Below, piece by piece: positions 3,433 through 39,676 of a stretch of 64,000 nt of DNA. The notes below the pieces were generated by a model that did no database searches, was not told where the DNA came from, and saw nothing but the letters and a program-made list of their open reading frames with translations. The stretch spans positions 100,480-164,479 of the forward strand of contig CAYQPN010000001.1 of assembly GCA_964419675.1 (NCBI GenBank). The letters are read 5' to 3'. The position numbers and the translations under genes were made by a program. Positions within the stretch are counted from its first letter, which is position 1; each line of letters starts with the position of its first letter. This DNA comes from an uncultured Candidatus Saccharibacteria bacterium (GTDB taxonomy: Bacteria > Patescibacteriota > Saccharimonadia > Saccharimonadales > SZUA-47).

Positions 3433-3507
3433 TGGGATGTCGCCAAGTGGTAAGGCACTGGTTTCTGGAACCAGCATTCGTAGGTTCGAATCCTACCATC
3501 CCAGCCA
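3433..3507 (+). tRNA. tRNA-Gln (anticodon CUG)
   Basis: It folds as a cloverleaf: acceptor TGGGATG/CATCCCA, D-arm GCCAAGTGGTAAGGC, anticodon stem CTGGT/ACCAG with loop TTCTGGA, T-arm GTAGGTTCGAATCCTAC, and discriminator G plus an encoded CCA. It closely resembles bacterial tRNA-Gln. Confidence 0.85.
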
Positions 3508-3512
3508 ACTAA

Positions 3513-3546
3513 AACCACCCCCGAAAATGGGGTGTTTTTAGTTGTT
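3513..3546. terminator. Rho-independent terminator hairpin after tRNA-Gln (possibly bidirectional)
   Basis: The sequence is aaaaCCACCCCcgaaaatGGGGTGttttt: a 6-7 bp GC stem, a 7-nt loop, a downstream T-run and an upstream A-run. Confidence 0.5.
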
Positions 3547-3654
3547 TGTGTCTGTAGGATTTGAACCGATAGGCGAAATATGTCAGTGACATATTGAGTT
3601 TTCCCTGCTTGGCTGAACGAGATGCGGTCCCGCTCTCGAGTGAGCAAATTTGGG

Positions 3655-3676
3655 CGAATCCTACCATCCCAGCCAA
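3655..3676 (+). repeat. 22-nt direct repeat identical to the tRNA-Gln 3' end (cgaatcctaccatcccagccaa = 3487..3508); attR-like
   Basis: Exact match seen in the sequence. It is preceded by a ~105-nt arm-like element (3548..3654) that is homologous to 11950..12052 and 16131..16225. Confidence 0.75.
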
Positions 3677-4114
3677 TTTTGAAATTTTTTGCAAAAGGTC
3701 GTTATTATTAACGTCTTTAATCTTTCACCGATGTTCCTAGTCTCCAAGACCCTGATTATAATGTATGTGTTTTGAATGACCGATTTGGATAAGTTTATTA
3801 ATGTGCTAAAGCTTGTTATAATTATATTTAAATATATGGGGTACAAAAGGCGAGAACTTTTTGACGTAATTCGAGGGTTGAGCCGGGGCGTTAATAAGCT
3901 CGTAACCAACTCCGCTATTGTAGTTCGAAATATTATCATAGTTACCAAAATCTACTTGATACCAATCATAGTAGTCGTACTTGTATGGTTACGCACCACT
4001 ACTGTTTATATTGATGAACACTACTGGAGTCCACAACGTAAAAGATTGATTTTGAAATTTAAACCCTTGCAGAGATGGGATGCATGGGCATACCGACCAC
4101 AGGCAAGAAAATCC

Positions 4115-7100
4115 ATGGAGTTAATGCTAGCAGTCCTATTTATCAGCTCGATATTTCAGGCAGCGCTCCAGGCAGCTCCCGATCTTAATGATGACTGGGA
4201 TTTGGCTAATGCGGTTGACTATACCTATGATTCAGGAATAGAGATGGTGTCTGGTGTTGCACGGCTTAAGACTCAAAATTATGAAAACGACGCCGATACA
4301 AGGGCGCTATACCACTTTGATGAATCCGGAGGTATCAACGCTTCTGATAGTTCGTCAAACAGCAATAATGCAACAATTTCAGGGGGCAGTTTTGTAGCAG
4401 GGAGCTTGAATAATGCAGTTTCGCTTGACGGCATTGACGACACAGTAACTGCACCTAACAGTGCAAGCCTGCAACTCGGTCAACAGCACACCATTGAGGC
4501 TTGGACTAAGTTTAATAATAATTTCGATAGCACCTCTCACGACCGAAGAAATGCAGTTGTAGATAAGGGAGATTACCAGCTTTACTATGACAATGAAACT
4601 GGTAAGTTAACATATGAAATTGCTAACTCTACGTCATCAAATTGGACACAAACAGCGGGTAGTAACATTGGTGGTAGTTGGGGGACGAACGGCAAGCGAA
4701 GCGTGACGTCCAGTATAGTGATGGGCTCTGATGTTTATGCTGGATTAGGAAATCAGCTTGCTGATGCTGAAGTATGGATGTGGAACGGCAGTGACTGGGA
4801 ACTTGTCGGCGGTGACGGGGTTAACGGTTCTTGGGACGATCAAACATTTGAAGATGTATATTCAATGACAACAGATGGCACTAATCTATATGCCGGACTA
4901 GGAACAACCGCAGGTGATGCCGAAGTATGGCGATGGGATGGAGCCACTTGGACAAAAATTGGGGGCGATGCGGTTAGCAGTAGTTGGCAAGTTAGTACCT
5001 TTGAAACAGTCGGTTCTCTTAACTACTTTGGTTCGAATCTGTACGCTGGTTTGGGCAGTAGCGCGAGCGACGCTGAAGTATGGCGCTGGAACGGCACAAC
5101 TTGGACAAAAATAGGCGGTGACAGCTTGAACAGTGGTTGGGTTGCTGGATATGAGATTGTCTCGGCTCTGGCTGACGACGGCACTAATTTATACGCCGGC
5201 CTAGGAACAACCGCCAACGACGCCGAAGTATGGATGTGGAATGGAACCGCTTGGTCGCAAATTGGCGGTGACAGTTTGAACAGTGGTTGGGCTGCTGGGT
5301 TTGAGGCTGTAAGAGCGATGCGATACATTGCAGGAATTTTATATGCAGGTCTGGGTGATACGGCAGGAGATGCAGATTTATGGTCATGGAACGGGGCTAC
5401 ATGGTCGCAAATTGGCGGTGACGGCCTAAACGGAAGCTGGAATACAAACTATGAAGGCATATATGCAATCGGTACTGACGGAACCGACATTTATGCAGGG
5501 CTGGGTACGGGGAATGGCGACGGAGAAGTGTGGCGACGTAGTGGAGGAAGTTGGTCGCAAATTGGTGGCGATGGCCTAAACGGAAGCTGGACCACAAACT
5601 TTGGGGACACGGTATATACGCTTCCTAATAATGGCACTACTGTTTATGCCGGAATTTACGACACGGCGGGAGGTGGCTACTTATACTCTTGGAACGGCAC
5701 AACTTGGACCACTCTCGGTGGACAATACATAAATAATAGTTGGGGTTATTACGGGCAAGGTTCTGTGGAAGTACTTCAAGTGTCTGGGGAGTATCTATAC
5801 GCCGGCCTTGGTTCAGCAAGTGGGTCAGCACAGATATGGCGTCTAAGCGGGAGTACCTGGAGTTTAGTTGGTGGTCAAGGAATAAACAATAGCTGGCCAG
5901 CGAATACATATGAGCAAGTTTCTAGTATGAGTAGCCACGAGGGTAACTTGTATGTCGGGCTGGGTACTACAGCCAACGACAGTGAAGTATGGATGTGGAA
6001 CGGCACCACGTGGTCGCAAATTGGTGGTGACAGCTTAAATAGCGGTTGGACTACCAATTTTGAAGAGGTAAACTCACTCGCTAGCTTTAATGGTGATTTG
6101 TACGCGGGCTTAGGTAATAGCAATAACGATGCTGAAGTATGGCGGTGGAACGGCGCAACCTGGACAAAAATAGGTGGCGACAGCCTGAACAGTGGTTGGA
6201 CTACCAACTATGACAGAGTAAGTTCATTGGCGGTTTATAAAGGTAATTTAATTGCTGGTCTCGGAGCAGGAGCCGGAGAGGCTGAACTGTGGCAGTGGAA
6301 CGGCGCAGCTTGGTCAAAAATAGGTGGCGATAGCCTGAACAGTAGCTGGGATAGTACTTTTGAGCAGATAGAAGCACTGATTCAATTTAACAATAAGCTG
6401 TATATAGGTCTTGGAAACACTGCGGGTGACGGCGAAGTGTGGGAACTTGATGATACAACGTGGACCAAGATTGGAGGCGACGACTTAAATAATAGTTGGG
6501 CAGACGGTACTTATGAAAGGGTACGCACCCTAGCTACTTACAACGGTGATTTATTTGCAGGCCTTGGTAGCGGAACTGGCGAAGGAGAAGTCTGGAGATA
6601 CTCGGCCGGAAGTTGGACTAAAGTGGGTGGTAATAGCGTCAATACTTCTTGGGGTAACACCATGGAAGAGGTTGAATCTTTTAGTACTTACCAAGGTAAG
6701 CTTTACGCTGGGACTGGCAACACCGCCAATGCGGATGCAACCGTGTGGTCGCTTGGTGATAATGGTTACCTGCAATCAACAACCAGTAGTTTCAACACAG
6801 ACTGGCGTCACGTGGCTGCTTCGTACAACGGCAGTACGATGAGAATTTATATTAACGGCACACTCGAAAATTCACTGTCAAAAACGTTTAGTGTAGCAAC
6901 TAGTAATCGTGACTTACTCATTAGTACAGGATATGGTGGTCGTGAATACGGTAAACCACAGGCAAGATTTCAGGGACTTATTGATGAGGTGCGTCTAAGC
7001 AGTGTTAGCCGGTCGTCGTTTACTACCAGCCCATATGCGAGTTCACCGCAGTCCCTAAGGCCACAAGACAGTGTGAGAAAAAATGGCGTATGGCACTGGG

Positions 7101-9940
7101 ACACATTTAGCCATAATGAAACCCCTAACGGCGGATCGGTTAACTATAGGCTATCGTCCGACGAAGGCACCACATGGCTATTCTGGGACGGCTTAGCATG
7201 GTCGCAATCAAATAGCCTTACCGAGGCAAATACAGTCGCTGTTATAACTGCTAACTTTGACGAGTTCCCTGTGACATTTGACGGAATGCTCTGGCAGGCA
7301 GTTCTTAGTGGCAATGGGTCACAGCAAGTTATTCTTGACGGTGTAAACGCTGATGCAACTTCTGACACCATCGACCCAACTTCCAACCCGTCGAACATAG
7401 TCGCCTACAAGGCAAACGGGGGTACTGTACTTGCTCAAGACGATTGGACAAATGGCGGGTCACCCTACTTTACCTGGGATGTCGGTGATGACGCCGAATC
7501 AGAAGTGAAGGGTTATTGTGCGTATCTAGGAACTGATGAGCTAGCGGATCCAGTGACAACCAAAGGGCTACTGGGTAATAGCCCAGCTCCAACAGGTGAT
7601 AACTGTCAGTTTATGGTGACTGGAACTTCACTTGACCTAGCAACTCCAGGACTCTTATCAACACCACTCTCAACAACAAACGACACCTACTATCTAAACT
7701 TGCGGACAATTGATAATGCCGGCAATGTCACCAACACCTCTTCTCAATTTTCATTTAGGTTTGATAATACGATGCCAACGAATCCCGGCTACATTACCGC
7801 ACCTTCGGGCTTTATAAACACAAAAGACGTCTCAATGTCATGGCCAACTATAGGCGGTAGTGCACCAAGTGACAGCAATTCAGGATTAGTCGGGCTTCAG
7901 TATCGAATCGGCGCGGGCGGTACATGGTACGGGGATGGTCATACGGGGCTTGGCGACATGGCTGATTTGCTGAACAATGACGGAGAATACAATACTCTAG
8001 AAACTCCCGACTATGCCTCACTCATTGAAGGAATTAACACAGTCTACTTTAGAACGTGGGATTTGGCTGGTAACGTATCTACAACATATGTAACAGCAAC
8101 TCTCAAAATTAACACCAGTGGTGCACCGAGTGTACCGAACAACCTAGTTGCAACACCGACGACAAACACTGCTAACTCCTTTGGATTTAATTGGGATGCT
8201 CCGACGACGTTTATTGGTGACGAGAATAACATTACTTACTGCTACACAATCAATACACTTCCTTCACCGTCATCTTGTGCGTATACAGGCCCCGGCTCAA
8301 CAGAGCTAACCGTAGGCGCATATGCAACACAACCCGGATTAAACACCATGTACATAGCTGCTCGAGATGAGTCTAGCAACATCAACTACGATAATTATGC
8401 TTCCACAGGATTTACAGCTGACACCCCGTCTCCGGGAGTGCCATTAAATACTGACCTTGTAGACGTATCAATAAAAAATACCAGCAACTGGAGGCTAGCG
8501 CTCACATGGGATGTGCCTACATACACCGGTGGTGGTATCAATAATTACCGAATCTTTAGGTCTACAGACAACATTACATTTAATCAAGTCGGAACGAGTT
8601 CAAGCACTACATACATTGACGCCGGTCTAAGCCAGCAAACCTATTACTACAATATTTCAGCTTGTGACAATACAAATAACTGTGGCGCATCTGGTACAAC
8701 GGTGAGTGGCTTTCCTACCGGTAAATTCACAAGCCCTGCCACGCTTATCGACGGACCAGCTACTAGCGACATTACAACTAAACGAGCAAAAGTCAGCTGG
8801 ACAACTGACCGAGCAAGCGATTCGAAAGTACAAATTGGTACACAAAGTGGCGAATATAGCCCATCCGAGGTTGGTAATTCAGATCAAACATCGGTTCATG
8901 AAATTTCTCTGGACAATTTGTCGCCAGGAACAACCTACTACTTAAAAGTAAAATGGACAGACGAGGACGGAAACACAGGCACTAGCTCAGAGCAGACATT
9001 CACGACCGCCCCAGCACCTTCAATTATAGAGCTAGAAGTAACCGGAGTCGGTCTTGGCAGTGCGGGACTTGCCTTTACAACTCGGGGTGCCACAAAGGCT
9101 ACTGTCTACTACGGTACTAGCGAATCGTTTGGCGGGCTAAAAACGGTGAATACTGCAACTGTAGAGTCGCGCTATCAGGTAGAATTAGACGATTTGACCG
9201 ACGGCACAAAATACTACTACATGGTAAGTACCTACGACCAAGAAGGCGCAGAATACAGAGGCAATGTCGGCTCGTTCTCCACGCCACCTCGACCAAGAAT
9301 AACTAATCTTAGGTTCCAACCTGTTGCAGGAGAGCCAACAAGTACCCAGCAGGTAACATGGGACACAAACGTTCCAAGTAGTAGTCAGGTTACCTACAAT
9401 ATTGTTAACGGAACCCCAATTGAAGTACAGGACTCTAGCCTAGTAACTTCTCATGAAATTGTCATACGTAATCTAAGTGATGACAGTGAATATGTTCTTA
9501 CGGCCCTAAGCCGTGATGCGTCAGGAAATTCTACAACTTCAGATAGGCAAGTTTTCCGAACAGCACTTGATACCAGACCTCCAAAAGCCACAGATGTTGT
9601 CGTTGAATCTTCTATTAGGGGTTCCGGTTCAGAGGCTCGTGGCCAAATAGTAGTCTCGTGGCGCACGGACGAACCATCGACAAGCCAAGTTGCGTATGCT
9701 GAAGGTTCAGACGCTGTAACCTTTAACAGCAAGACGGTTGAGGACACGATACTTACGACCGAGCACCTAGTCATTATTTCTGATTTGCCAACTTCTCGAG
9801 TCTTTAGTGTCCAGCCCCTTTCAAAAGACTCTGCAGGCAATGAAGGTCAAGGAGAAACTCAGACCGCCATTATTGGACGGGCATCAGACAGTGCTATTAC
9901 CGTCGTATTCAATACACTTAAAGCGATATTTGGATTATAA
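4115..9940 (+). CDS. Giant secreted repeat protein: about 20 tandem ~45-50-aa beta-propeller-like repeats, a LamG/concanavalin-like domain and multiple Fn3-like domains
   Basis: The ORF is open from 3776 (2054 aa). The likely start is the ATG at 4115 (MELMLAVLFISSIFQAALQAAP, signal-peptide-like). The upstream 113 codons are AT-rich and non-protein-like. The repeat consensus is …NLYAGLGTTANDAEVWRWNGTTWTKIGGDSLNSGW…. The LamG motif is DWRHVAASYNGSTMRIYINGTLENS. Fn3-like signatures include TTYYLKVKWTDEDGNTG and TKYYYMVSTYDQEG. Confidence 0.8.
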   Translation: MELMLAVLFISSIFQAALQAAPDLNDDWDLANAVDYTYDSGIEMVSGVARLKTQNYENDADTRALYHFDESGGINASDSSSNSNNATISGGSFVAGSLNNAVSLDGIDDTVTAPNSASLQLGQQHTIEAWTKFNNNFDSTSHDRRNAVVDKGDYQLYYDNETGKLTYEIANSTSSNWTQTAGSNIGGSWGTNGKRSVTSSIVMGSDVYAGLGNQLADAEVWMWNGSDWELVGGDGVNGSWDDQTFEDVYSMTTDGTNLYAGLGTTAGDAEVWRWDGATWTKIGGDAVSSSWQVSTFETVGSLNYFGSNLYAGLGSSASDAEVWRWNGTTWTKIGGDSLNSGWVAGYEIVSALADDGTNLYAGLGTTANDAEVWMWNGTAWSQIGGDSLNSGWAAGFEAVRAMRYIAGILYAGLGDTAGDADLWSWNGATWSQIGGDGLNGSWNTNYEGIYAIGTDGTDIYAGLGTGNGDGEVWRRSGGSWSQIGGDGLNGSWTTNFGDTVYTLPNNGTTVYAGIYDTAGGGYLYSWNGTTWTTLGGQYINNSWGYYGQGSVEVLQVSGEYLYAGLGSASGSAQIWRLSGSTWSLVGGQGINNSWPANTYEQVSSMSSHEGNLYVGLGTTANDSEVWMWNGTTWSQIGGDSLNSGWTTNFEEVNSLASFNGDLYAGLGNSNNDAEVWRWNGATWTKIGGDSLNSGWTTNYDRVSSLAVYKGNLIAGLGAGAGEAELWQWNGAAWSKIGGDSLNSSWDSTFEQIEALIQFNNKLYIGLGNTAGDGEVWELDDTTWTKIGGDDLNNSWADGTYERVRTLATYNGDLFAGLGSGTGEGEVWRYSAGSWTKVGGNSVNTSWGNTMEEVESFSTYQGKLYAGTGNTANADATVWSLGDNGYLQSTTSSFNTDWRHVAASYNGSTMRIYINGTLENSLSKTFSVATSNRDLLISTGYGGREYGKPQARFQGLIDEVRLSSVSRSSFTTSPYASSPQSLRPQDSVRKNGVWHWDTFSHNETPNGGSVNYRLSSDEGTTWLFWDGLAWSQSNSLTEANTVAVITANFDEFPVTFDGMLWQAVLSGNGSQQVILDGVNADATSDTIDPTSNPSNIVAYKANGGTVLAQDDWTNGGSPYFTWDVGDDAESEVKGYCAYLGTDELADPVTTKGLLGNSPAPTGDNCQFMVTGTSLDLATPGLLSTPLSTTNDTYYLNLRTIDNAGNVTNTSSQFSFRFDNTMPTNPGYITAPSGFINTKDVSMSWPTIGGSAPSDSNSGLVGLQYRIGAGGTWYGDGHTGLGDMADLLNNDGEYNTLETPDYASLIEGINTVYFRTWDLAGNVSTTYVTATLKINTSGAPSVPNNLVATPTTNTANSFGFNWDAPTTFIGDENNITYCYTINTLPSPSSCAYTGPGSTELTVGAYATQPGLNTMYIAARDESSNINYDNYASTGFTADTPSPGVPLNTDLVDVSIKNTSNWRLALTWDVPTYTGGGINNYRIFRSTDNITFNQVGTSSSTTYIDAGLSQQTYYYNISACDNTNNCGASGTTVSGFPTGKFTSPATLIDGPATSDITTKRAKVSWTTDRASDSKVQIGTQSGEYSPSEVGNSDQTSVHEISLDNLSPGTTYYLKVKWTDEDGNTGTSSEQTFTTAPAPSIIELEVTGVGLGSAGLAFTTRGATKATVYYGTSESFGGLKTVNTATVESRYQVELDDLTDGTKYYYMVSTYDQEGAEYRGNVGSFSTPPRPRITNLRFQPVAGEPTSTQQVTWDTNVPSSSQVTYNIVNGTPIEVQDSSLVTSHEIVIRNLSDDSEYVLTALSRDASGNSTTSDRQVFRTALDTRPPKATDVVVESSIRGSGSEARGQIVVSWRTDEPSTSQVAYAEGSDAVTFNSKTVEDTILTTEHLVIISDLPTSRVFSVQPLSKDSAGNEGQGETQTAIIGRASDSAITVVFNTLKAIFGL

Positions 9941-10708: not shown

Positions 10709-11931
10709 AAAGGCGCAAGGTCACGGATAAAGCCACAGTTCAGACGGGTATTCTTGCATCAATTGCTCTTAGTAACCTTACTCATAAAAAGCTACGAACA
10801 GGCTTAACTGTTTTTGGTATAGCCATAGGTATTGGTGCAATTTACTTTCTACTTTCTTTCGGCATTGGCCTGCAAAGACTTGTAACAAACGAAGTTATTG
10901 GCAACCAATCTATAAAGACTATAGACGTTGTAAGTTCAAACTCAAATATCGTCAAACTTGACGACACCGCAACCCAACGCGTTACACAAATACCTAACGT
11001 AATTGAGACGGGCAAGGCATACTATTTCCCTGGTAGCTTCAAAATTAGTGGTAGCGAGTCTGACAGCATTGTCTATGGGGTTGATACTGGCTATCAAAAT
11101 TTAACACACCTGAATTTAATTGAAGGCAAACTGCTTAAAGACACAGAAGAACAAAGCGGGGTAGTAATCAACAAAGCAGCGCTAGAAGCTATAGGCTTAG
11201 CGGGCAATCCAAGCGAAGTCATAAACAAGACGGTCAGTGTAATCGTGCCTCTTTCAAAAATTGATTCAGCTCTAGGTACATTTACTGAAGAATTTGTAAT
11301 TGTCGGAATCATAGATTCTGGAAGCGGTTCAGAAATTTTCATATCAAGTGCCATGTTTAAGGACAAAGGCGTGCCCTACCTTACTCAACTTAAGGTTGGC
11401 ACAAGGGAAGTTACAGACATACAAGTTATCCGTTCGCAAATTGAAAGCTTTGGATTTGAAACATCCTCGCCGGTAGATACCTTGGAGGAAATTAATAACG
11501 TATTCCGCTTTCTCAACTACATTTTGGTTGGGTTTGGAGGAATCGGAATGATTGTTGCTGTGCTTGGTATGTTTAACACGCTTACCATTTCACTTCTAGA
11601 GCGAACCAAAGAGATAGGACTTATGGTGGCGCTTGGTGCGCGGTCAATCGACATGAAGCGTCTCTTTATTTTTGAAGCCCTATTCTTGTCACTATTTGGT
11701 TCGGTGCTGGGAATCACTGGCGCTTTCATAATCGGCAGAGTCGTAAATACTGTTATGAACATTCTGGCATCCGGTAGGGGTGTGCAAGACAGTTTTGAAC
11801 TGTTTGCTAATCCGCCACTTCTTATCATAGGAATGCTAGCTTTTATGGTTGCTGTCGGGTTAGCGGTTGTATATTTGCCCGCAAGGCGCGCGCAAAGAAT
11901 TAACCCAATTGATGCACTTAGACGAGAGTAG
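10705..11931 (+). CDS. ABC transporter permease, FtsX/MacB-type (N-terminal TM, large extracytoplasmic domain, C-terminal 3-TM FtsX domain)
   Basis: 408 aa with an ATGA start/stop overlap with the ATPase gene. The C-terminal FtsX-like segment ends …YLPARRAQRINPIDALRRE. Confidence 0.85.
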   Translation: MKRRKVTDKATVQTGILASIALSNLTHKKLRTGLTVFGIAIGIGAIYFLLSFGIGLQRLVTNEVIGNQSIKTIDVVSSNSNIVKLDDTATQRVTQIPNVIETGKAYYFPGSFKISGSESDSIVYGVDTGYQNLTHLNLIEGKLLKDTEEQSGVVINKAALEAIGLAGNPSEVINKTVSVIVPLSKIDSALGTFTEEFVIVGIIDSGSGSEIFISSAMFKDKGVPYLTQLKVGTREVTDIQVIRSQIESFGFETSSPVDTLEEINNVFRFLNYILVGFGGIGMIVAVLGMFNTLTISLLERTKEIGLMVALGARSIDMKRLFIFEALFLSLFGSVLGITGAFIIGRVVNTVMNILASGRGVQDSFELFANPPLLIIGMLAFMVAVGLAVVYLPARRAQRINPIDALRRE

Positions 11932-12052
11932 TCGGTTCACAGTACAGTTTAGTGTTAGGTTAGAACCAGCGTTTTGTTATAAAATAGGCTCGTCTATCAG
12001 TCACAGTCCCTGCAAAGCGGGCGACTGGATTGAGATGGTAATTCATCCCACA

Positions 12053-12070
12053 ATCCCAGCCAATTAAAAC
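12053..12070 (+). repeat. Third partial copy of the tRNA-Gln 3' end plus downstream flank (atcccagccaaTtaaaac vs atcccagccaaCtaaaac at 3498..3515)
   Basis: 17 of 18 nt are identical and the match extends past the tRNA CCA end. The upstream ~100 nt (11950..12052) are homologous to the arm element 3548..3654. Confidence 0.55.
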
Positions 12071-12157
12071 AATCTTTACGAGTTACCCCATCTATGATAA
12101 TTTAGGTTTTTTATAGTATATCCATTCATACAATCAAGTCCTATAATTATAAATAAC

Positions 12158-12367
12158 ATGTATGTATTAGTTGATGAAACTGGTGAACTAGAGTCTACTA
12201 CTAAAGATGGGTTAGGAATTTGTACCCTAGTAATGATCAATGATAAAAGCTGGAATAAATTTAACAAATTTTTATTAAAAAACGAAATAGACCCTAAATT
12301 TCAAAAATCCAGTAACCTAAAGTTTGATAAAAGAAAAATAATTACAAATTATATCTCTAGTAATTGA
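12158..12367 (+). CDS. Hypothetical protein (69 aa) in a very AT-rich block; N-terminal VLVDETGE resembles the DUF3800-type N-terminal motif
   Basis: ORF only. It is in the same frame as 12512..13108 and separated from it by stops, so it may be a decayed single gene. Confidence 0.3.
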   Translation: MYVLVDETGELESTTKDGLGICTLVMINDKSWNKFNKFLLKNEIDPKFQKSSNLKFDKRKIITNYISSN

Positions 12368-12511
12368 GGTATATACTATTATGCTATTTGCCACGACCCT
12401 GTTTACTATGATTTAGAATCTATAAAGAATCACAAAATAGAACAAGCTAGCAGAGTTGATAAGTTTATAAAATCAGACACAGACACTAAAAAAGAAATTA
12501 GAGCGAAAAAC

Positions 12512-13108
12512 TTGCTAATATTTCGAAACCAATATCGCAACTTAACGAATCCAGACTTTATAAAACTCACAATGATTACTGAAGCTTTTATGAAATGGTT
12601 TGAATATTTTCAGTTTGACATAGACAATTTTCCAAACAATGATGATAACTGGCATTTTTTTCATAGAATTGATACGCAAAACAAGCCTGAGAAATTCAAG
12701 CGATTATTGACTGGTTACATTAAAATGACCATTCATCCAGCTGCAAATAATGGGATATCAATAAAGTATAACAGCGACATTTCTTTGAGACACCCGTTTC
12801 ACAAAAATAATGCAGGAAAAGATGGTTATGCTGACCCAAATATATTTCTTGAAGATATAAAAATTACTACTGAAACAGTAACTCCCCAGTTATTTTTACC
12901 AGATTTCTTTGGCAACACTTTTTTTCGAGCTTTCAAAACAAATGAAGAAAAATATTTAAGTTTAGCAAAAAACTTAGGTCAAAGAAGAATGAAAGCAATG
13001 AAGTTTAGGCCAAATAATAAGTATATTCTAAAAGTAATTAGTTTTGATGATAAAAAAGTGCGTGTAAATAAAAAACTTGAAGATTTTTTAATATCTACGA
13101 AGCAATGA
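12512..13108 (+). CDS. Hypothetical protein (198 aa), AT-rich accessory block
   Basis: Long ORF in an AT-rich region (~25-30% GC by eye). No recognisable motifs. Confidence 0.4.
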   Translation: MLIFRNQYRNLTNPDFIKLTMITEAFMKWFEYFQFDIDNFPNNDDNWHFFHRIDTQNKPEKFKRLLTGYIKMTIHPAANNGISIKYNSDISLRHPFHKNNAGKDGYADPNIFLEDIKITTETVTPQLFLPDFFGNTFFRAFKTNEEKYLSLAKNLGQRRMKAMKFRPNNKYILKVISFDDKKVRVNKKLEDFLISTKQ

Positions 13109-13249
13109 TCGACCGGCGCAATATAGCACGCGTCTAAGGCCGCGTGTGATCACGCTGTTTAATCAGTTGTTGCCGAAAATGTGTTAGTGCTAAATTATAT
13201 ATCATAAGTTACGGTATATAATGTAACCTATAAATAGGAGTAAACCGTT

Positions 13250-14125
13250 TTGCAGTCAAATCAATGTGTATCTTGTATTGCAAACTCAATTACTGATTCT
13301 TGGTACATTCTGCTCAATAACTTATATGAAATTGCTCAAAACTATGATAATGCCAATCAAGAAAATACTTCGACTGTAGATAATTACGCGACCAGGATTA
13401 CTATAGGAATTATAAATTCATCTTTCATGAACCTTTGTACAGGTGTTCACGAAAACGGAAAAAATAATTTTGAGTCGTTTATGTGCATTTCACGAAATGT
13501 TCTTGAAAGGCTTTCGAATATAAACTATCTCAACTCTAAACCGGAAAATAGAATTAAATACTCAAAAATATTAAAAAATAATGAACGTGATATTTGTGAA
13601 CTTTACTTGCCTGCGGACCCGATTAAAAAATCAACAGAATGGAAATCTCAAAAGTGGACTAATATAAGCCAGGAAAAACGTATAAATGCTTTATCTAGTA
13701 AACAACATATTCTTCTATATGGATATTATTCGAGGGTACTACACACATTAAATATTGATATTTTACTTAAAGATGAAATGAATATGACTTTTATAAAGAT
13801 CTACACACTTCTAGAATTAGTTATATCATATAACACTGTACTTTCTGTTTATCACGAAAATTCCGATGAGTATAATGCCATAAAAACTAAACACAAAGAA
13901 TTTAACAATTTACTAAATTTTACATGGATGAACAAGAATTTATCTCTCAACTCAATTATTTTGTTGACAACTTTTTACGATGATAAAAGAGACAAAAGAA
14001 ACTCTAAAGTTCTCAAATTATACTTAAAAGCTTTAAAAGGGTCTCAAAAAAGTATGACATTTCCAGAATTTGTATATGTTAAACATGATTTATCTTTTAA
14101 ACATAATAATGAGACAATACACTAA
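13250..14125 (+). CDS. Hypothetical protein (291 aa), AT-rich accessory block
   Basis: Long ORF with a TTG start, preceded by AGGAG 11 nt upstream. No recognisable family. Confidence 0.45.
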   Translation: MQSNQCVSCIANSITDSWYILLNNLYEIAQNYDNANQENTSTVDNYATRITIGIINSSFMNLCTGVHENGKNNFESFMCISRNVLERLSNINYLNSKPENRIKYSKILKNNERDICELYLPADPIKKSTEWKSQKWTNISQEKRINALSSKQHILLYGYYSRVLHTLNIDILLKDEMNMTFIKIYTLLELVISYNTVLSVYHENSDEYNAIKTKHKEFNNLLNFTWMNKNLSLNSIILLTTFYDDKRDKRNSKVLKLYLKALKGSQKSMTFPEFVYVKHDLSFKHNNETIH

Positions 14126-14196
14126 TATTATAATGTTAGAAAATATATTACCAAAGAAATGCCTTCAAAAACAGATAAAGTGTAGTAGATTTTATA

Positions 14197-14424
14197 TTAG
14201 TAGTATTCTTGTATAACAGCAATAAAAGCTAATATTAGCAACAGAAATAAAACCAGGTACATAAAGTACGCTTGCCCTTTTTCTCCCTTTTCATAATATT
14301 CATTCGCTTGTATTATTGCGCCAAAATACACGATGAGTAGCACTACTGCTACAAACCAACCTTTGAAATCTATCCCTGCCGGGCCAAAACAGTTTCCATA
14401 ACAAGAAGCAAATATTGCTAACAT
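14197..14424 (-). CDS. Small membrane protein (2 predicted TM helices)
   Basis: 75 aa, strongly hydrophobic. Confidence 0.3.
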   Translation of the reverse strand: MLAIFASCYGNCFGPAGIDFKGWFVAVVLLIVYFGAIIQANEYYEKGEKGQAYFMYLVLFLLLILAFIAVIQEYY

Positions 14425-14558
14425 ACTTATATCGTATCATTCAATTGACCCAATCAAGCTCAATTCTCTACATAAATTATAGGTTCGAAGCTCATCCATT
14501 AGAGGTAGTCAATACAATATGAAAACCCCTTTGGAAGAATTTTTGCTAAACTTAAACT

Positions 14559-15089
14559 ATGAAAGAACAGTTTGAGGAAATATTTTTGGTTGGGGGTAAG
14601 GCTAATTCTTTGGGGAGGTCTGCGGAAGTTCTTGAATTGGTTGTATCAAACAAGCGCTACCTTCCAGAACTATACGAATGCATATCGCATGAAGATGCGT
14701 GGGTACGGATGCGCGCAATCGATACACTGGAAAAAGTCTGCCGAGTCCACCCAGACTGGCTAGAGCCGTACACCGACCACATGCTAAAAGTGCTATCCAA
14801 AAGCAACCAACCATCAATTCAATGGCACCTAGCACAAATTTTTAAACAAATTAAACTCACAGATGCGCAAAGGGAATCAGCGCTACGATGGCTTTCTAAA
14901 CTACTTAAAGACAAAAATGTTGACTGGATTGTATCCGCAAATGCGATGGACACCCTAGCTCAATTTACAAATGAAGGCCTGTTCCCAAAAGACCAACTGG
15001 TTAAATTATTGAAAATTCAACTTAACCACAAATCAAAAGCCGTAGCTAAGCGCGCCACCAAAATCTTAAGCCAAATCGAACCCAACTAA
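14559..15089 (+). CDS. HEAT-repeat protein, DNA alkylation repair (AlkC/AlkD)-like
   Basis: 176 aa, all-helical repeat pattern (…EDAWVRMRAIDTLEKV…VDWIVSANAMDTLAQF…). Confidence 0.45.
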   Translation: MKEQFEEIFLVGGKANSLGRSAEVLELVVSNKRYLPELYECISHEDAWVRMRAIDTLEKVCRVHPDWLEPYTDHMLKVLSKSNQPSIQWHLAQIFKQIKLTDAQRESALRWLSKLLKDKNVDWIVSANAMDTLAQFTNEGLFPKDQLVKLLKIQLNHKSKAVAKRATKILSQIEPN

Positions 15090-38357: not shown

Positions 38358-38569
38358 ACTTTTAATTAACCATCGTAGACTGCTATAATTAGCAATATTA
38401 ACAATTAAACATATAAAGAGTGTGGAGTAGGGATCTAGCCCGCAAATACCACCAGCAACCGGCAATTATGCAAAGGTGCTAAATCTAGCCCGACTTGGTT
38501 GGGGAAGATATTTGCTACACATTAGTAAGCCTTTCTTGACCATCGGTGGCCATAAGAAAGGTTTTTTTG

Positions 38570-39676
38570 ATGTCATACAAATTATTTACAAGTGAGTCAG
38601 TAGCTGCCGGGCACCCAGATAAAATTGCAGACGCAATTAGTGATGCTATTTTAGATGCAATTCTAGAGCAAGACCCTCATGCACGGGCCGGACTCGAAAC
38701 TATTGTTGGTGCTAATAAAGTTGGGCTGTTTGGCGAAATTAAGACTAGCGCAAAAGTTAACTTTAAAGAAGTAACCAAAAAAGAGATTAGAAGATTAGGT
38801 TATACAAACACTGATTGGAACTTTTCAGACAAATCTCCGATTGAAGTAAATATTCACCAACAATCACCAGAAATAGCCATGGGAGTTGACCTAGATGGTG
38901 CTGGCGATCAAGGTATGATGTTTGGCTTTGCGTGTAACGAAACTCCAGAGCTGATGCCTCTTCCGATTACACTTGCCCACGCTCTTACAAGAGCCCTAGA
39001 CGAGTCCCGAGAAAGTGGGGCTATTTCTTTTGTAAGACCTGATGGTAAGAGTCAAGTAACGGTTGCGTATGAAGACGGCAAACCTGTTGCTGTTGAAAAG
39101 GTTGTAATGGCTTTGGCGCACGATGAAAAAACTTCTCCTGATGAAGTTCATAAAGTAATTAAAGAGAAAATCATAGACGAAGTTATGAAAAAATATGGCT
39201 ATAGCGTGTCGGACAAACAGGTTGTGATAAACGGCACTGGGCTGTGGCACATTCCTGGTCCTGATACTGACGCCGGCTTAACGGGTAGAAAAATTGTTGT
39301 TGACGGATACGGTGGCTACGCAAGAGTTGGTGGTGGGGCGTTTTCAGGCAAAGACCCAAGTAAGGTTGACCGCTCTGGAGCGTACGCAGCCCGCTACATT
39401 GCTAAAAACGTAGTAGCAGCAGGTCTAGCCGAAAAATGCGAAGTAGCACTAGCCTACGTAATCGGTAGGGCAGACCCAATGATGAAGGCCTTTGATACTT
39501 TTGGCACTGAAACAGATTCAATAGAAAACATCCAAAAATTCATTGATAGGTTGCTTGATACGTCGGTGAAGGGAATTGTAGATGGCTTAAACCTTCGAAG
39601 GCCAATATACAGTTCCACAACGGCCTACGGCCACTTCGGCAAAAAAGATTTGCCATGGGAACAAATATCTAAATAG
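38570..39676 (+). CDS. metK: S-adenosylmethionine synthetase
   Basis: …LFTSESVAAGHPDKIADAISDAILDAILEQDP…, GGGAFSGKDPSKVDRSGAY. Confidence 0.9.
   Translation: MSYKLFTSESVAAGHPDKIADAISDAILDAILEQDPHARAGLETIVGANKVGLFGEIKTSAKVNFKEVTKKEIRRLGYTNTDWNFSDKSPIEVNIHQQSPEIAMGVDLDGAGDQGMMFGFACNETPELMPLPITLAHALTRALDESRESGAISFVRPDGKSQVTVAYEDGKPVAVEKVVMALAHDEKTSPDEVHKVIKEKIIDEVMKKYGYSVSDKQVVINGTGLWHIPGPDTDAGLTGRKIVVDGYGGYARVGGGAFSGKDPSKVDRSGAYAARYIAKNVVAAGLAEKCEVALAYVIGRADPMMKAFDTFGTETDSIENIQKFIDRLLDTSVKGIVDGLNLRRPIYSSTTAYGHFGKKDLPWEQISK

Follow-up and report, generated by a model that had tools for sequence, protein, structure and literature searches.

An extremely AT-rich block of three open reading frames (ORFs) was analyzed in a 64,000-nucleotide (nt) stretch of DNA, referred to here as the window, from an uncultured Candidatus Saccharibacteria bacterium (GenBank assembly GCA_964419675.1, contig CAYQPN010000001.1, positions 100,480 to 164,479). 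We consider it fairly probable that this block is a decaying, horizontally acquired islet of approximately 2.4 kb, which carries a broken and divergent member of the DUF3800 family and an orphan gene. The islet would have been acquired just downstream of an operon for a giant protein and an ABC transporter, starting at a tRNA-Gln scar. Its first gene (ORF 1 and ORF 2 together) would come from a rare DUF3800 subfamily characterized by a DE(T/S)G strand at the N-terminus and an inserted helical region of approximately 110 residues, the intact members of which may be carried as accessory, probably defence-related, nuclease cargo in variable regions. One nonsense codon would part the putative catalytic D-E pair from the rest of the protein, and the gene would have been inactivated recently. 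The remaining ORF, ORF 3, would be a separate gene from the same donor, with its own ribosome-binding site (RBS), and not a conserved partner.

A low-GC block and one gene split by a single stop codon

The GC content was found to be 0.295 within positions 12064-14489 compared to 0.409 in the remainder of the window, and no other 2.4-kb stretch was as low (the runner-up elsewhere had a GC content of 0.364). In bins of 500 nt, GC values were 0.27-0.32 between 12001 and 14500 and 0.40-0.47 on both flanks. GC was low at all three codon positions in the block, with values at the first position of 0.29-0.35 compared to approximately 0.5 in host genes, and Asn, Lys, Ile, Tyr and Phe together accounted for 40-43% of the residues in the block products compared to 21-28% in the products of neighbouring genes. 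The sequence-only reading, an earlier note made from the letters alone, had described the three ORFs as far more AT-rich than their surroundings and full of Asn, Lys, Ile and Tyr, and these values bear that description out. All three ORFs (12158-12367, 69 amino acids [aa]; 12512-13108, 198 aa; 13250-14125, 291 aa) share one plus-strand frame, in which 13 stops were found over positions 12076-14200 compared to 92 and 62 in the other two plus-strand frames, respectively. The longest stop-free run in the ORF frame was 293 codons and the maximum reached in 2000 first-order Markov simulations of the block was 162, indicating that the ORFs are genuine coding frames and not products of chance.

The operon upstream of the block encodes a 2054-aa repeat protein, an ABC ATPase and an FtsX/MacB-type permease, and it is kept in 12 Saccharimonadales/Saccharibacteria metagenome-assembled genomes (MAGs) with a permease identity of 55-82%. 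In the eight relatives with a nucleotide match, DNA similarity ends at or just before the permease stop codon (11931). The comparison of presence and absence that had been suggested was carried out on these 12 related genomes: the block was missing from all of them, no counterpart of ORF 1, ORF 2 or ORF 3 was found in any, and GC did not dip after the permease in any of them. A contig with the empty site was not found, and the contig of the closest relative ends at the permease. Taken together, the loss of DNA similarity, the absence from relatives and the deviant composition indicate that the block is lineage-specific foreign DNA at a synteny break. The foreign origin proposed by the sequence-only reading was thereby upheld, and a copy of a tRNA end that resembles an att site lies next to the block, as described below.

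The first two ORFs had been described as lying in the same frame, separated by stops, and as possibly forming one decayed gene. The shared frame was confirmed, but exactly one stop (the TGA at 12365-12367) was found between them; the frame is open from 12368, and 48 open codons separate the TGA from the first start codon of ORF 2. When the 246-aa open stretch (12368-13105) was used as the query of an exhaustive phmmer search against 1.84 billion representatives, 15 proteins were found at E<=1e-10, with 26-37% identity and most of them 316-328 aa long. In these relatives residue ~74 pairs with query residue 3, and therefore they have approximately 70 more N-terminal residues, which is the size of ORF 1. 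Their N-termini read MIIAIDETGRFEL, MYIFVDESGKFES and similar, compared to MYVLVDETGELES in ORF 1. The merged 316-residue product can be aligned over its whole length with approximately 20 intact relatives (316-328 aa) at 24-33% identity, and its comparison with family genes in other loci gave E values of 1e-29 to 1e-46. Residues D6, E7, K50, R59, K136, D154, D163, W165, D172, Q174, F180, H212 and D249 are conserved in this alignment, and the TGA falls in a variable loop column. Because full-length relatives align across the TGA, ORF 1 and ORF 2 are the halves of one gene and not two genes, as had been suspected. The product P0001 (178 aa) in the NCBI record corresponds to residues 69-246 of the 12368-13108 stretch, and its start would be the ATG at 12572.

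Parts of the block and both junctions were found at 100% identity in the assemblies SRR7369911 and SRR7369924 (Logan) and ERZ3430527 (ENA). The TGA is present in both assemblies that span it (L001 and L017), so it is not an artefact of a single assembly. Every candidate catalytic residue is retained in the window copy, and 28 of the 37 strongly conserved columns are matched. This score is at the low end of the range of the intact members (0.74-1.00) and is compatible with a divergent member or with early decay. Since the TGA cuts off the putative N-terminal catalytic part, the window copy is most likely inactive.

Relationship of the split gene to DUF3800

The family was detected solely by exhaustive HMMER search and not by word-indexed searches; the latter, run over 5.8 billion proteins with the ORF 1/2 product, returned only the sequences themselves. 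No match to Pfam, PADLOC, PHROGs or NCBIfam was obtained for ORF 1, ORF 2, ORF 3 or the merged protein, and no match to the DUF3800-like protein or its family was obtained by tblastn against phage and plasmid collections or in scans of viral contigs. Sequence searches of the PDB with single proteins and with the family profile gave nothing meaningful; a match to FtsY at E 0.005 was rejected as compositional. The family is rare, with about 20-25 clusters of 1-3 sequences each in 15 billion proteins, and it is apparently restricted to genomes of the candidate phyla radiation (CPR) type.

The sequence-only reading had likened the N-terminus of ORF 1, MYVLVDETGE, to that of DUF3800 proteins, and the likeness was supported by two lines of evidence. 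Pfam DUF3800 (PF12686) was the only Pfam family matched by more than one member (2 of 22). One of these, P0015, which is 26% identical to the window protein over its full length, passed the curated cut-off of 21 with a score of 22.4 bits, its residues 2-261 covering model positions 1-149 of 149. Neither the merged window protein nor its parts gave a match to Pfam DUF3800 even at E<=10, and the membership of the window protein is supported transitively, via its alignment with P0015. In addition, an AlphaFold (AF2) model of the intact homolog P0020, built from the 22-sequence alignment, had a predicted local distance difference test (pLDDT) score of 88.6 and a predicted template modelling (pTM) score of 0.89. 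The order in this model is strand-strand-helix-strand...strand-helix, and these elements bear the conserved acids: the first strand terminates in D6 and E7, an inner strand is followed by D173, and a long helix carries D251. Residues 89-155 form a helical block. A Foldseek search of BFVD with the model returned the DUF3800 domain phage protein A0A8S5M5R1 (probability 1.00, E 4.8e-3) and A0A8S5QA20 (E 4.3e-4). No significant match to solved RNase H structures was obtained by sequence or by Foldseek.

DUF3800 proteins have been described as RNase H2-like, with N-terminal DE and C-terminal QxxD motifs, and as the effector of type VII retrons (PMC7736814). In the present family, at least 90% of members share D6 and E7 of MYVLVDETGE, and the other conserved aspartates include D172, within I-D-T-Q, and D249, within L-P-D-x-I-G-N. 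No Q precedes D249 by three residues; in the window protein, Q244 lies five residues before it. The Q of QxxD is missing from the DUF3800 proteins of retron VII-A2 as well (PMC7736814). The DUF3800 protein found beside Cas12a2 has an RNase H fold with a catalytic rearrangement (PMC10910872), and in V-A2 and VI-F loci DUF3800 serves as an accessory nuclease with an RNase H fold (PMC12669027). With DUF3800 (PF12686, including the retron VII-A2 protein and the TPR-DUF3800 proteins of Cas12a2/Cas12a3 loci) the family shares an N-terminal hydrophobic strand ending in D-E-(S/T)-G, a C-terminal aspartate on a helix and accessory, defence-like contexts. It differs in that the Pfam model fails to detect most of its members, the window protein among them, and in that its ~320 aa exceed the 149 positions of that model by approximately 110 residues, mainly helical. 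Moreover, no reverse transcriptase, CRISPR array, TPR domain or known DUF3800 RNA motif is found nearby. The evidence from sequence and model supports the view that the family is a rare, divergent DUF3800 subfamily of ~320 aa and a predicted RNase H-fold nuclease. By analogy, the intact members would be metal-dependent RNase H-like nucleases. To our knowledge, no activity has been demonstrated for DUF3800 proteins. Where the first strand ends, the neighbouring D and E with the G after them resemble the motif of RNase HII, and the order of the conserved acids in the P0020 model, on a strand, a strand end and a helix, fits this type 2 RNase H with its DEDD active site. The relation of the family to RNase HII would run through DUF3800 only.

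DUF3800 genes have 11 unrelated structured RNA motifs as neighbours, which may lie on either side of the gene and in any orientation; the role of this proximity, which is frequent but not obligatory, is unexplained (PMC5737381). An Rfam scan of positions 11850-14650 (E<=10) detected none of DUF3800-I to XI, drum or skipping-rope RNA. The 12 family loci scanned likewise lacked known DUF3800 RNA motifs, and inspection by eye revealed no conserved RNA in the flanks of the family genes.

No conserved neighbour gene was found among the 10 other family loci. Near the family gene there were a large serine recombinase and SLFN/AlbA_2 in L020 (GCA_964530235.1), an SLFN-type helicase and a weak DUF5677 match in L021, an MvaI/BcnI endonuclease and a methyltransferase in L031 (GCA_964580065.1), and a zeta toxin and SNase in L032. 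In L030 (JGI Ga0612050_0021, a 1.17-Mb contig), UvrD helicase and SLOG/LDcluster4 genes flank the family gene inside a tRNA cluster. In this locus (5912-7036) the family gene starts 13 nt after tRNA-Arg and makes up the low-GC stretch by itself, with a GC content of 0.28-0.30 compared to 0.41-0.47 around it. These neighbourhoods are variable and defence- or mobilome-like, an associative kind of evidence only. An IS-like or autonomous element was considered and rejected, as no terminal inverted or direct repeats were found around the family gene in nine loci. Other features were observed at two of these loci. A LOOT RNA (Rfam RF03000, 64.4 bits) is present at 3282-3413 of L020, 2.6 kb upstream of the family gene. 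In L031 (897-10358), tRNA-Ala and a 23S rRNA gene with an intron (group I intron, LAGLIDADG genes) are separated by a 5.6-kb insert, which contains an HTH gene, an MvaI/BcnI-type endonuclease, a LexA-S24-methyltransferase fusion, the DUF3800-like gene and a Zip transporter.

Borders of the proposed islet and ORF 3

The block had been placed right after the third copy of a tRNA end, and this copy was confirmed at 12045-12063. Three copies of the 19-mer ATCCTACCATCCCAGCCAA were found: one at the tRNA-Gln end (3490-3508), one at 3658-3676 and a third, which has two mismatches, at 12045-12063; the number of such copies expected by chance in the window is 0. The likeness at 12045 continues into the 3' flank of tRNA-Gln (23 of 26 matches) and does not extend upstream, and the copy is located 95 nt upstream of the DUF3800-like gene. 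The left border of the islet is marked by this copy (12045-12070) and by the drop in GC right after it, at about 12070-12100. Judged from its sequence, the copy appears to be an att-like scar at the left edge of the islet. On the right side, GC recovers at about 14500-14600. The 10-mer TAGGTTCGAA, the sole other window copy of its T-arm segment of tRNA-Gln, was found at 14480-14489 with p about 0.04 and an alignment score not above that of shuffled sequences, and it may be the right border. Joined end to end, this piece and the one at 12045 would rebuild an attP-like 3' half of the tRNA, which is suggestive only. Coordinates of the features are listed in Table 1.

Table 1. Features of the AT-rich block and the related tRNA-Gln sequences (positions in the window)
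Feature	Position	Strand	Remarks
tRNA-Gln(CTG)	3433..3507	+	Source of the repeated 3'-end sequence
Second tRNA-Gln 3'-end copy	3658..3683		Contains the 19-mer at 3658-3676
Third tRNA-Gln 3'-end copy and 3' flank, ATCCcACaATCCCAGCCAAtTAAAAC	12045..12070	+	23/26 matches
DUF3800-like gene, 316 codons	12158..13108	+	Single in-frame TGA; D6, E7, D172 and D249 retained
ORF 1	12158..12367	+	N-terminal 69 codons of the DUF3800-like gene, with DE(T/S)G motif; ends at the stop
Interrupting TGA	12365..12367	+	Aligned column in relatives P, N, H, Q or K; never G or W
Remainder of the DUF3800-like gene, 246 codons	12368..13108	+	ORF 2 starts at TTG 12512
GC-rich inverted repeat CACGCG-N8-CGCGTG	13127..13146		Inside the 141-nt spacer between ORF 2 and ORF 3
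ORF 3, 291 aa	13250..14125	+	TTG start, GGAG 10 nt upstream; composition as extreme as that of the DUF3800-like gene
75-aa hydrophobic ORF	14197..14424	-	Right part of the low-GC stretch, GC 0.355; membership in the islet uncertain
TAGGTTCGAA	14480..14489	+	Identical to tRNA-Gln 3481-3490, the T-arm segment that immediately precedes the portion copied at 12045

With tRNA-associated genomic islets the block shares its deviant composition, its absence from relatives and, on the left side, a border copy of the tRNA-Gln 3' end. Elsewhere in the family, the gene lies at the tRNA-proximal edge of low-GC stretches that end at the neighbouring tRNA (L021, L029 and L030). The block differs from tRNA-associated islands in that it lacks a convincing second repeat and an integrase (no block ORF matches a recombinase family of Pfam, NCBIfam or PHROG), and in that it lies 8.5 kb from the tRNA-Gln gene, beyond the operon that is conserved in relatives.

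Composition as extreme as that of the DUF3800-like gene suggests that ORF 3 probably came from the same AT-rich donor. The RBS and TTG start that had been attributed to it were both found. No relative of ORF 3 was detected in 5.8 billion proteins by word-indexed searches, no exhaustive HMMER search being made, nor in phage and plasmid collections, viral or metagenome contigs or PDB sequences, and the gene is absent from all 10 other family loci. Single-sequence AlphaFold modelling gave an unusable result (pLDDT 33); the product is probably all-helical. A diverged paralog of the family was considered for ORF 3 and rejected on an hhalign probability of 0.8% and negative hidden Markov model scores. 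The motif R-x-K-I-x-K-Y-I-G-x-x-P-E-I-K-Y surrounds the site of the ORF 1/2 TGA in the family, and the resemblance to it of LERLSNINYLNSKPENRIKYSKIL (13502-13573, ORF 3 residues 85-108; hhalign E 0.07) is not significant and probably due to chance. Our best guess is that ORF 3 is independent cargo and not a partner of the DUF3800-like gene.

The GC-rich inverted repeat that had been reported between ORF 2 and ORF 3 is present. It folds no better than shuffled sequence (z = -1.5) and, having also a weak T run, it was rejected as a strong terminator; it could be a weak terminator or a seam. Separately, a 17-nt perfect inverted repeat is formed by TTTAAGTTTAGCAAAAA (12955-12971), inside the DUF3800-like gene, and TTTTTGCTAAACTTAAA (14540-14556), which occupies positions -19 to -3 ahead of the ATG of a HEAT-repeat gene. 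A repeat of this length was reached in 0 of 300 Markov simulations of 11900-14700. It could reflect RNA-RNA pairing that masks the start of the HEAT gene, or a recombination scar.

Several observations concern the tRNA-Gln gene and the upstream operon. Two features were found in the 150 nt between tRNA-Gln and the second end copy (3508-3683): at 3516-3540 a hairpin that resembles a terminator, and at 3554-3567, on the minus strand, an inverted fragment that resembles a T-arm, GGTTCAAATCCTAC. This region looks like a patchwork of pieces of tRNA, perhaps left over from integration and excision that took place earlier at tRNA-Gln. Downstream of the permease, the spacer at 11932-12075 has a folding energy of -38.3 kcal/mol (z = -3.3, with 0 of 200 shuffles as stable) and contains a GC-rich hairpin, CAGTCCCTGCAAAGCGGGCGACTGG, just ahead of the tRNA-end copy; it has no match in Rfam. 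The gene for the 2054-aa protein (3776-9940) has approximately 11 tandem repeats of ~150 nt (~50 aa) with the motif W-x-W-N-G-x-x-W-x-x-I-G-G-D, and its operon adjoins tRNA-Gln in at least one of the 12 MAGs (L010). Further away, a S-adenosylmethionine (SAM) riboswitch (RF00162, 50.2 bits) was found at 38408-38514, upstream of an ORF at 38546-39676.

Alternative explanations and significance

The split gene could still be functional if its TGA were read through or recoded, or if the donor read TGA as an amino acid (Gly in code 25, Trp in code 4). All the acidic residues conserved in the family are intact, the 316 codons hold no second lesion, the frame stays open up to the first start codon of ORF 2, the very low GC content resembles that of code-25 and code-4 lineages, and the TGA is identical in the independent assemblies that span it. 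However, in the host the genetic code is the standard one, TGA being the stop of 7 of 42 long ORFs, and all the relatives are called as intact proteins under that code. In addition, the 7 Trp codons in the block are all TGG, the DUF3800-like gene itself terminates with TGA, and the relatives have P, N, H, Q or K and never G or W at the aligned column. A donor in which TGA is a sense codon is therefore unlikely; an origin of the TGA in code 4 or code 25 was rejected on account of the standard-code host, the seven TGG codons and the aligned column, and a plain nonsense mutation is the simplest reading. Overall, a functional split gene is judged to be improbable. We give still less credence to an active defence, abortive-infection or toxin-antitoxin module of two or three genes, with ORF 3 and possibly also the 75-aa membrane ORF as partners of the DUF3800-like product; the sequence-only reading had proposed an orphan defence, abortive-infection or toxin module. 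The genes are co-oriented, adjacent and of the same composition, DUF3800 is an effector or accessory protein of retron VII and of some Cas12 and Cas13 loci (PMC7736814, PMC10910872, PMC12669027), and the relatives occur in defence-like neighbourhoods. It is only from these neighbourhoods and this literature that a defence or toxin role might be proposed. Such a module was not supported: the nuclease gene is cut short, ORF 3 follows a 141-nt spacer, is preceded by an RBS of its own and has no relatives in the searched sets, none of the 10 other loci has it beside the family gene, and no neighbour is conserved among them. The PADLOC scan that had been suggested matched no defence model (PADLOC-DB 2.0, E<=1 for the window proteins), and no product matched Pfam, PHROG or NCBIfam; among the 22 family members, matches to PADLOC-DB 2.0 were scattered, each from single members.

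A further possibility is that the DUF3800 subfamily is functionally tied to tRNA genes, a tRNA or tRNA-like fragment being its partner or target RNA, or the protein directing insertion of its own gene at tRNA 3' ends. The family gene lies 14-260 nt from a tRNA gene in 4 of the 10 other loci (tRNA-Asn, tRNA-His and tRNA-Glu convergent, tRNA-Arg 13 nt upstream), for which a rough binomial estimate gives p about 1e-4, assuming ~0.03 per gene in a 1-Mb genome with 45 tRNAs. In the Candidatus Daviesbacteria locus L024 (JAUSEZ010000027.1, 7029-7107), two extra 13/14 copies of the tRNA-His 3' end were found between tRNA-His and the convergent DUF3800-like gene, which parallels the tRNA-Gln end copy upstream of the gene in the window. 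The gene-only low-GC stretch right after tRNA-Arg in L030 and the 11 unrelated structured RNAs beside DUF3800 genes (PMC5737381) point in the same direction. If true, a tRNA as partner or target would extend the unexplained association of DUF3800 with noncoding RNA. Nevertheless, islands commonly integrate at tRNA genes, which is the ordinary explanation of such adjacency and needs no function. Furthermore, 6 of the 10 loci have no adjacent tRNA, tRNA identity and relative orientation vary, no terminal inverted or direct repeats surround the gene in any locus examined, and multi-copy occurrence was not seen. We therefore regard a functional tie to tRNA genes as unlikely. Its alternative form, in which the RNase H-fold protein would be the catalytic protein of a minimal selfish element of ~1 kb that inserts at tRNA 3' ends and leaves repeats such as those in the window and in L024, seems to us just as doubtful.

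A decaying islet with a broken DUF3800-like gene thus remains our preferred explanation. Three ORFs that would be listed as hypothetical are resolved into one interpretable pseudogene and one true orphan. For this genome, the block would be ordinary decaying acquired DNA, and the DUF3800 family itself was already known; the member is new. The small family of ~320-aa proteins defined here is mostly missed by the Pfam DUF3800 model and now has a confident structural model. As a compact, stand-alone subfamily that abuts tRNA genes in several loci, it may offer a simple system for testing what DUF3800 nucleases recognize.

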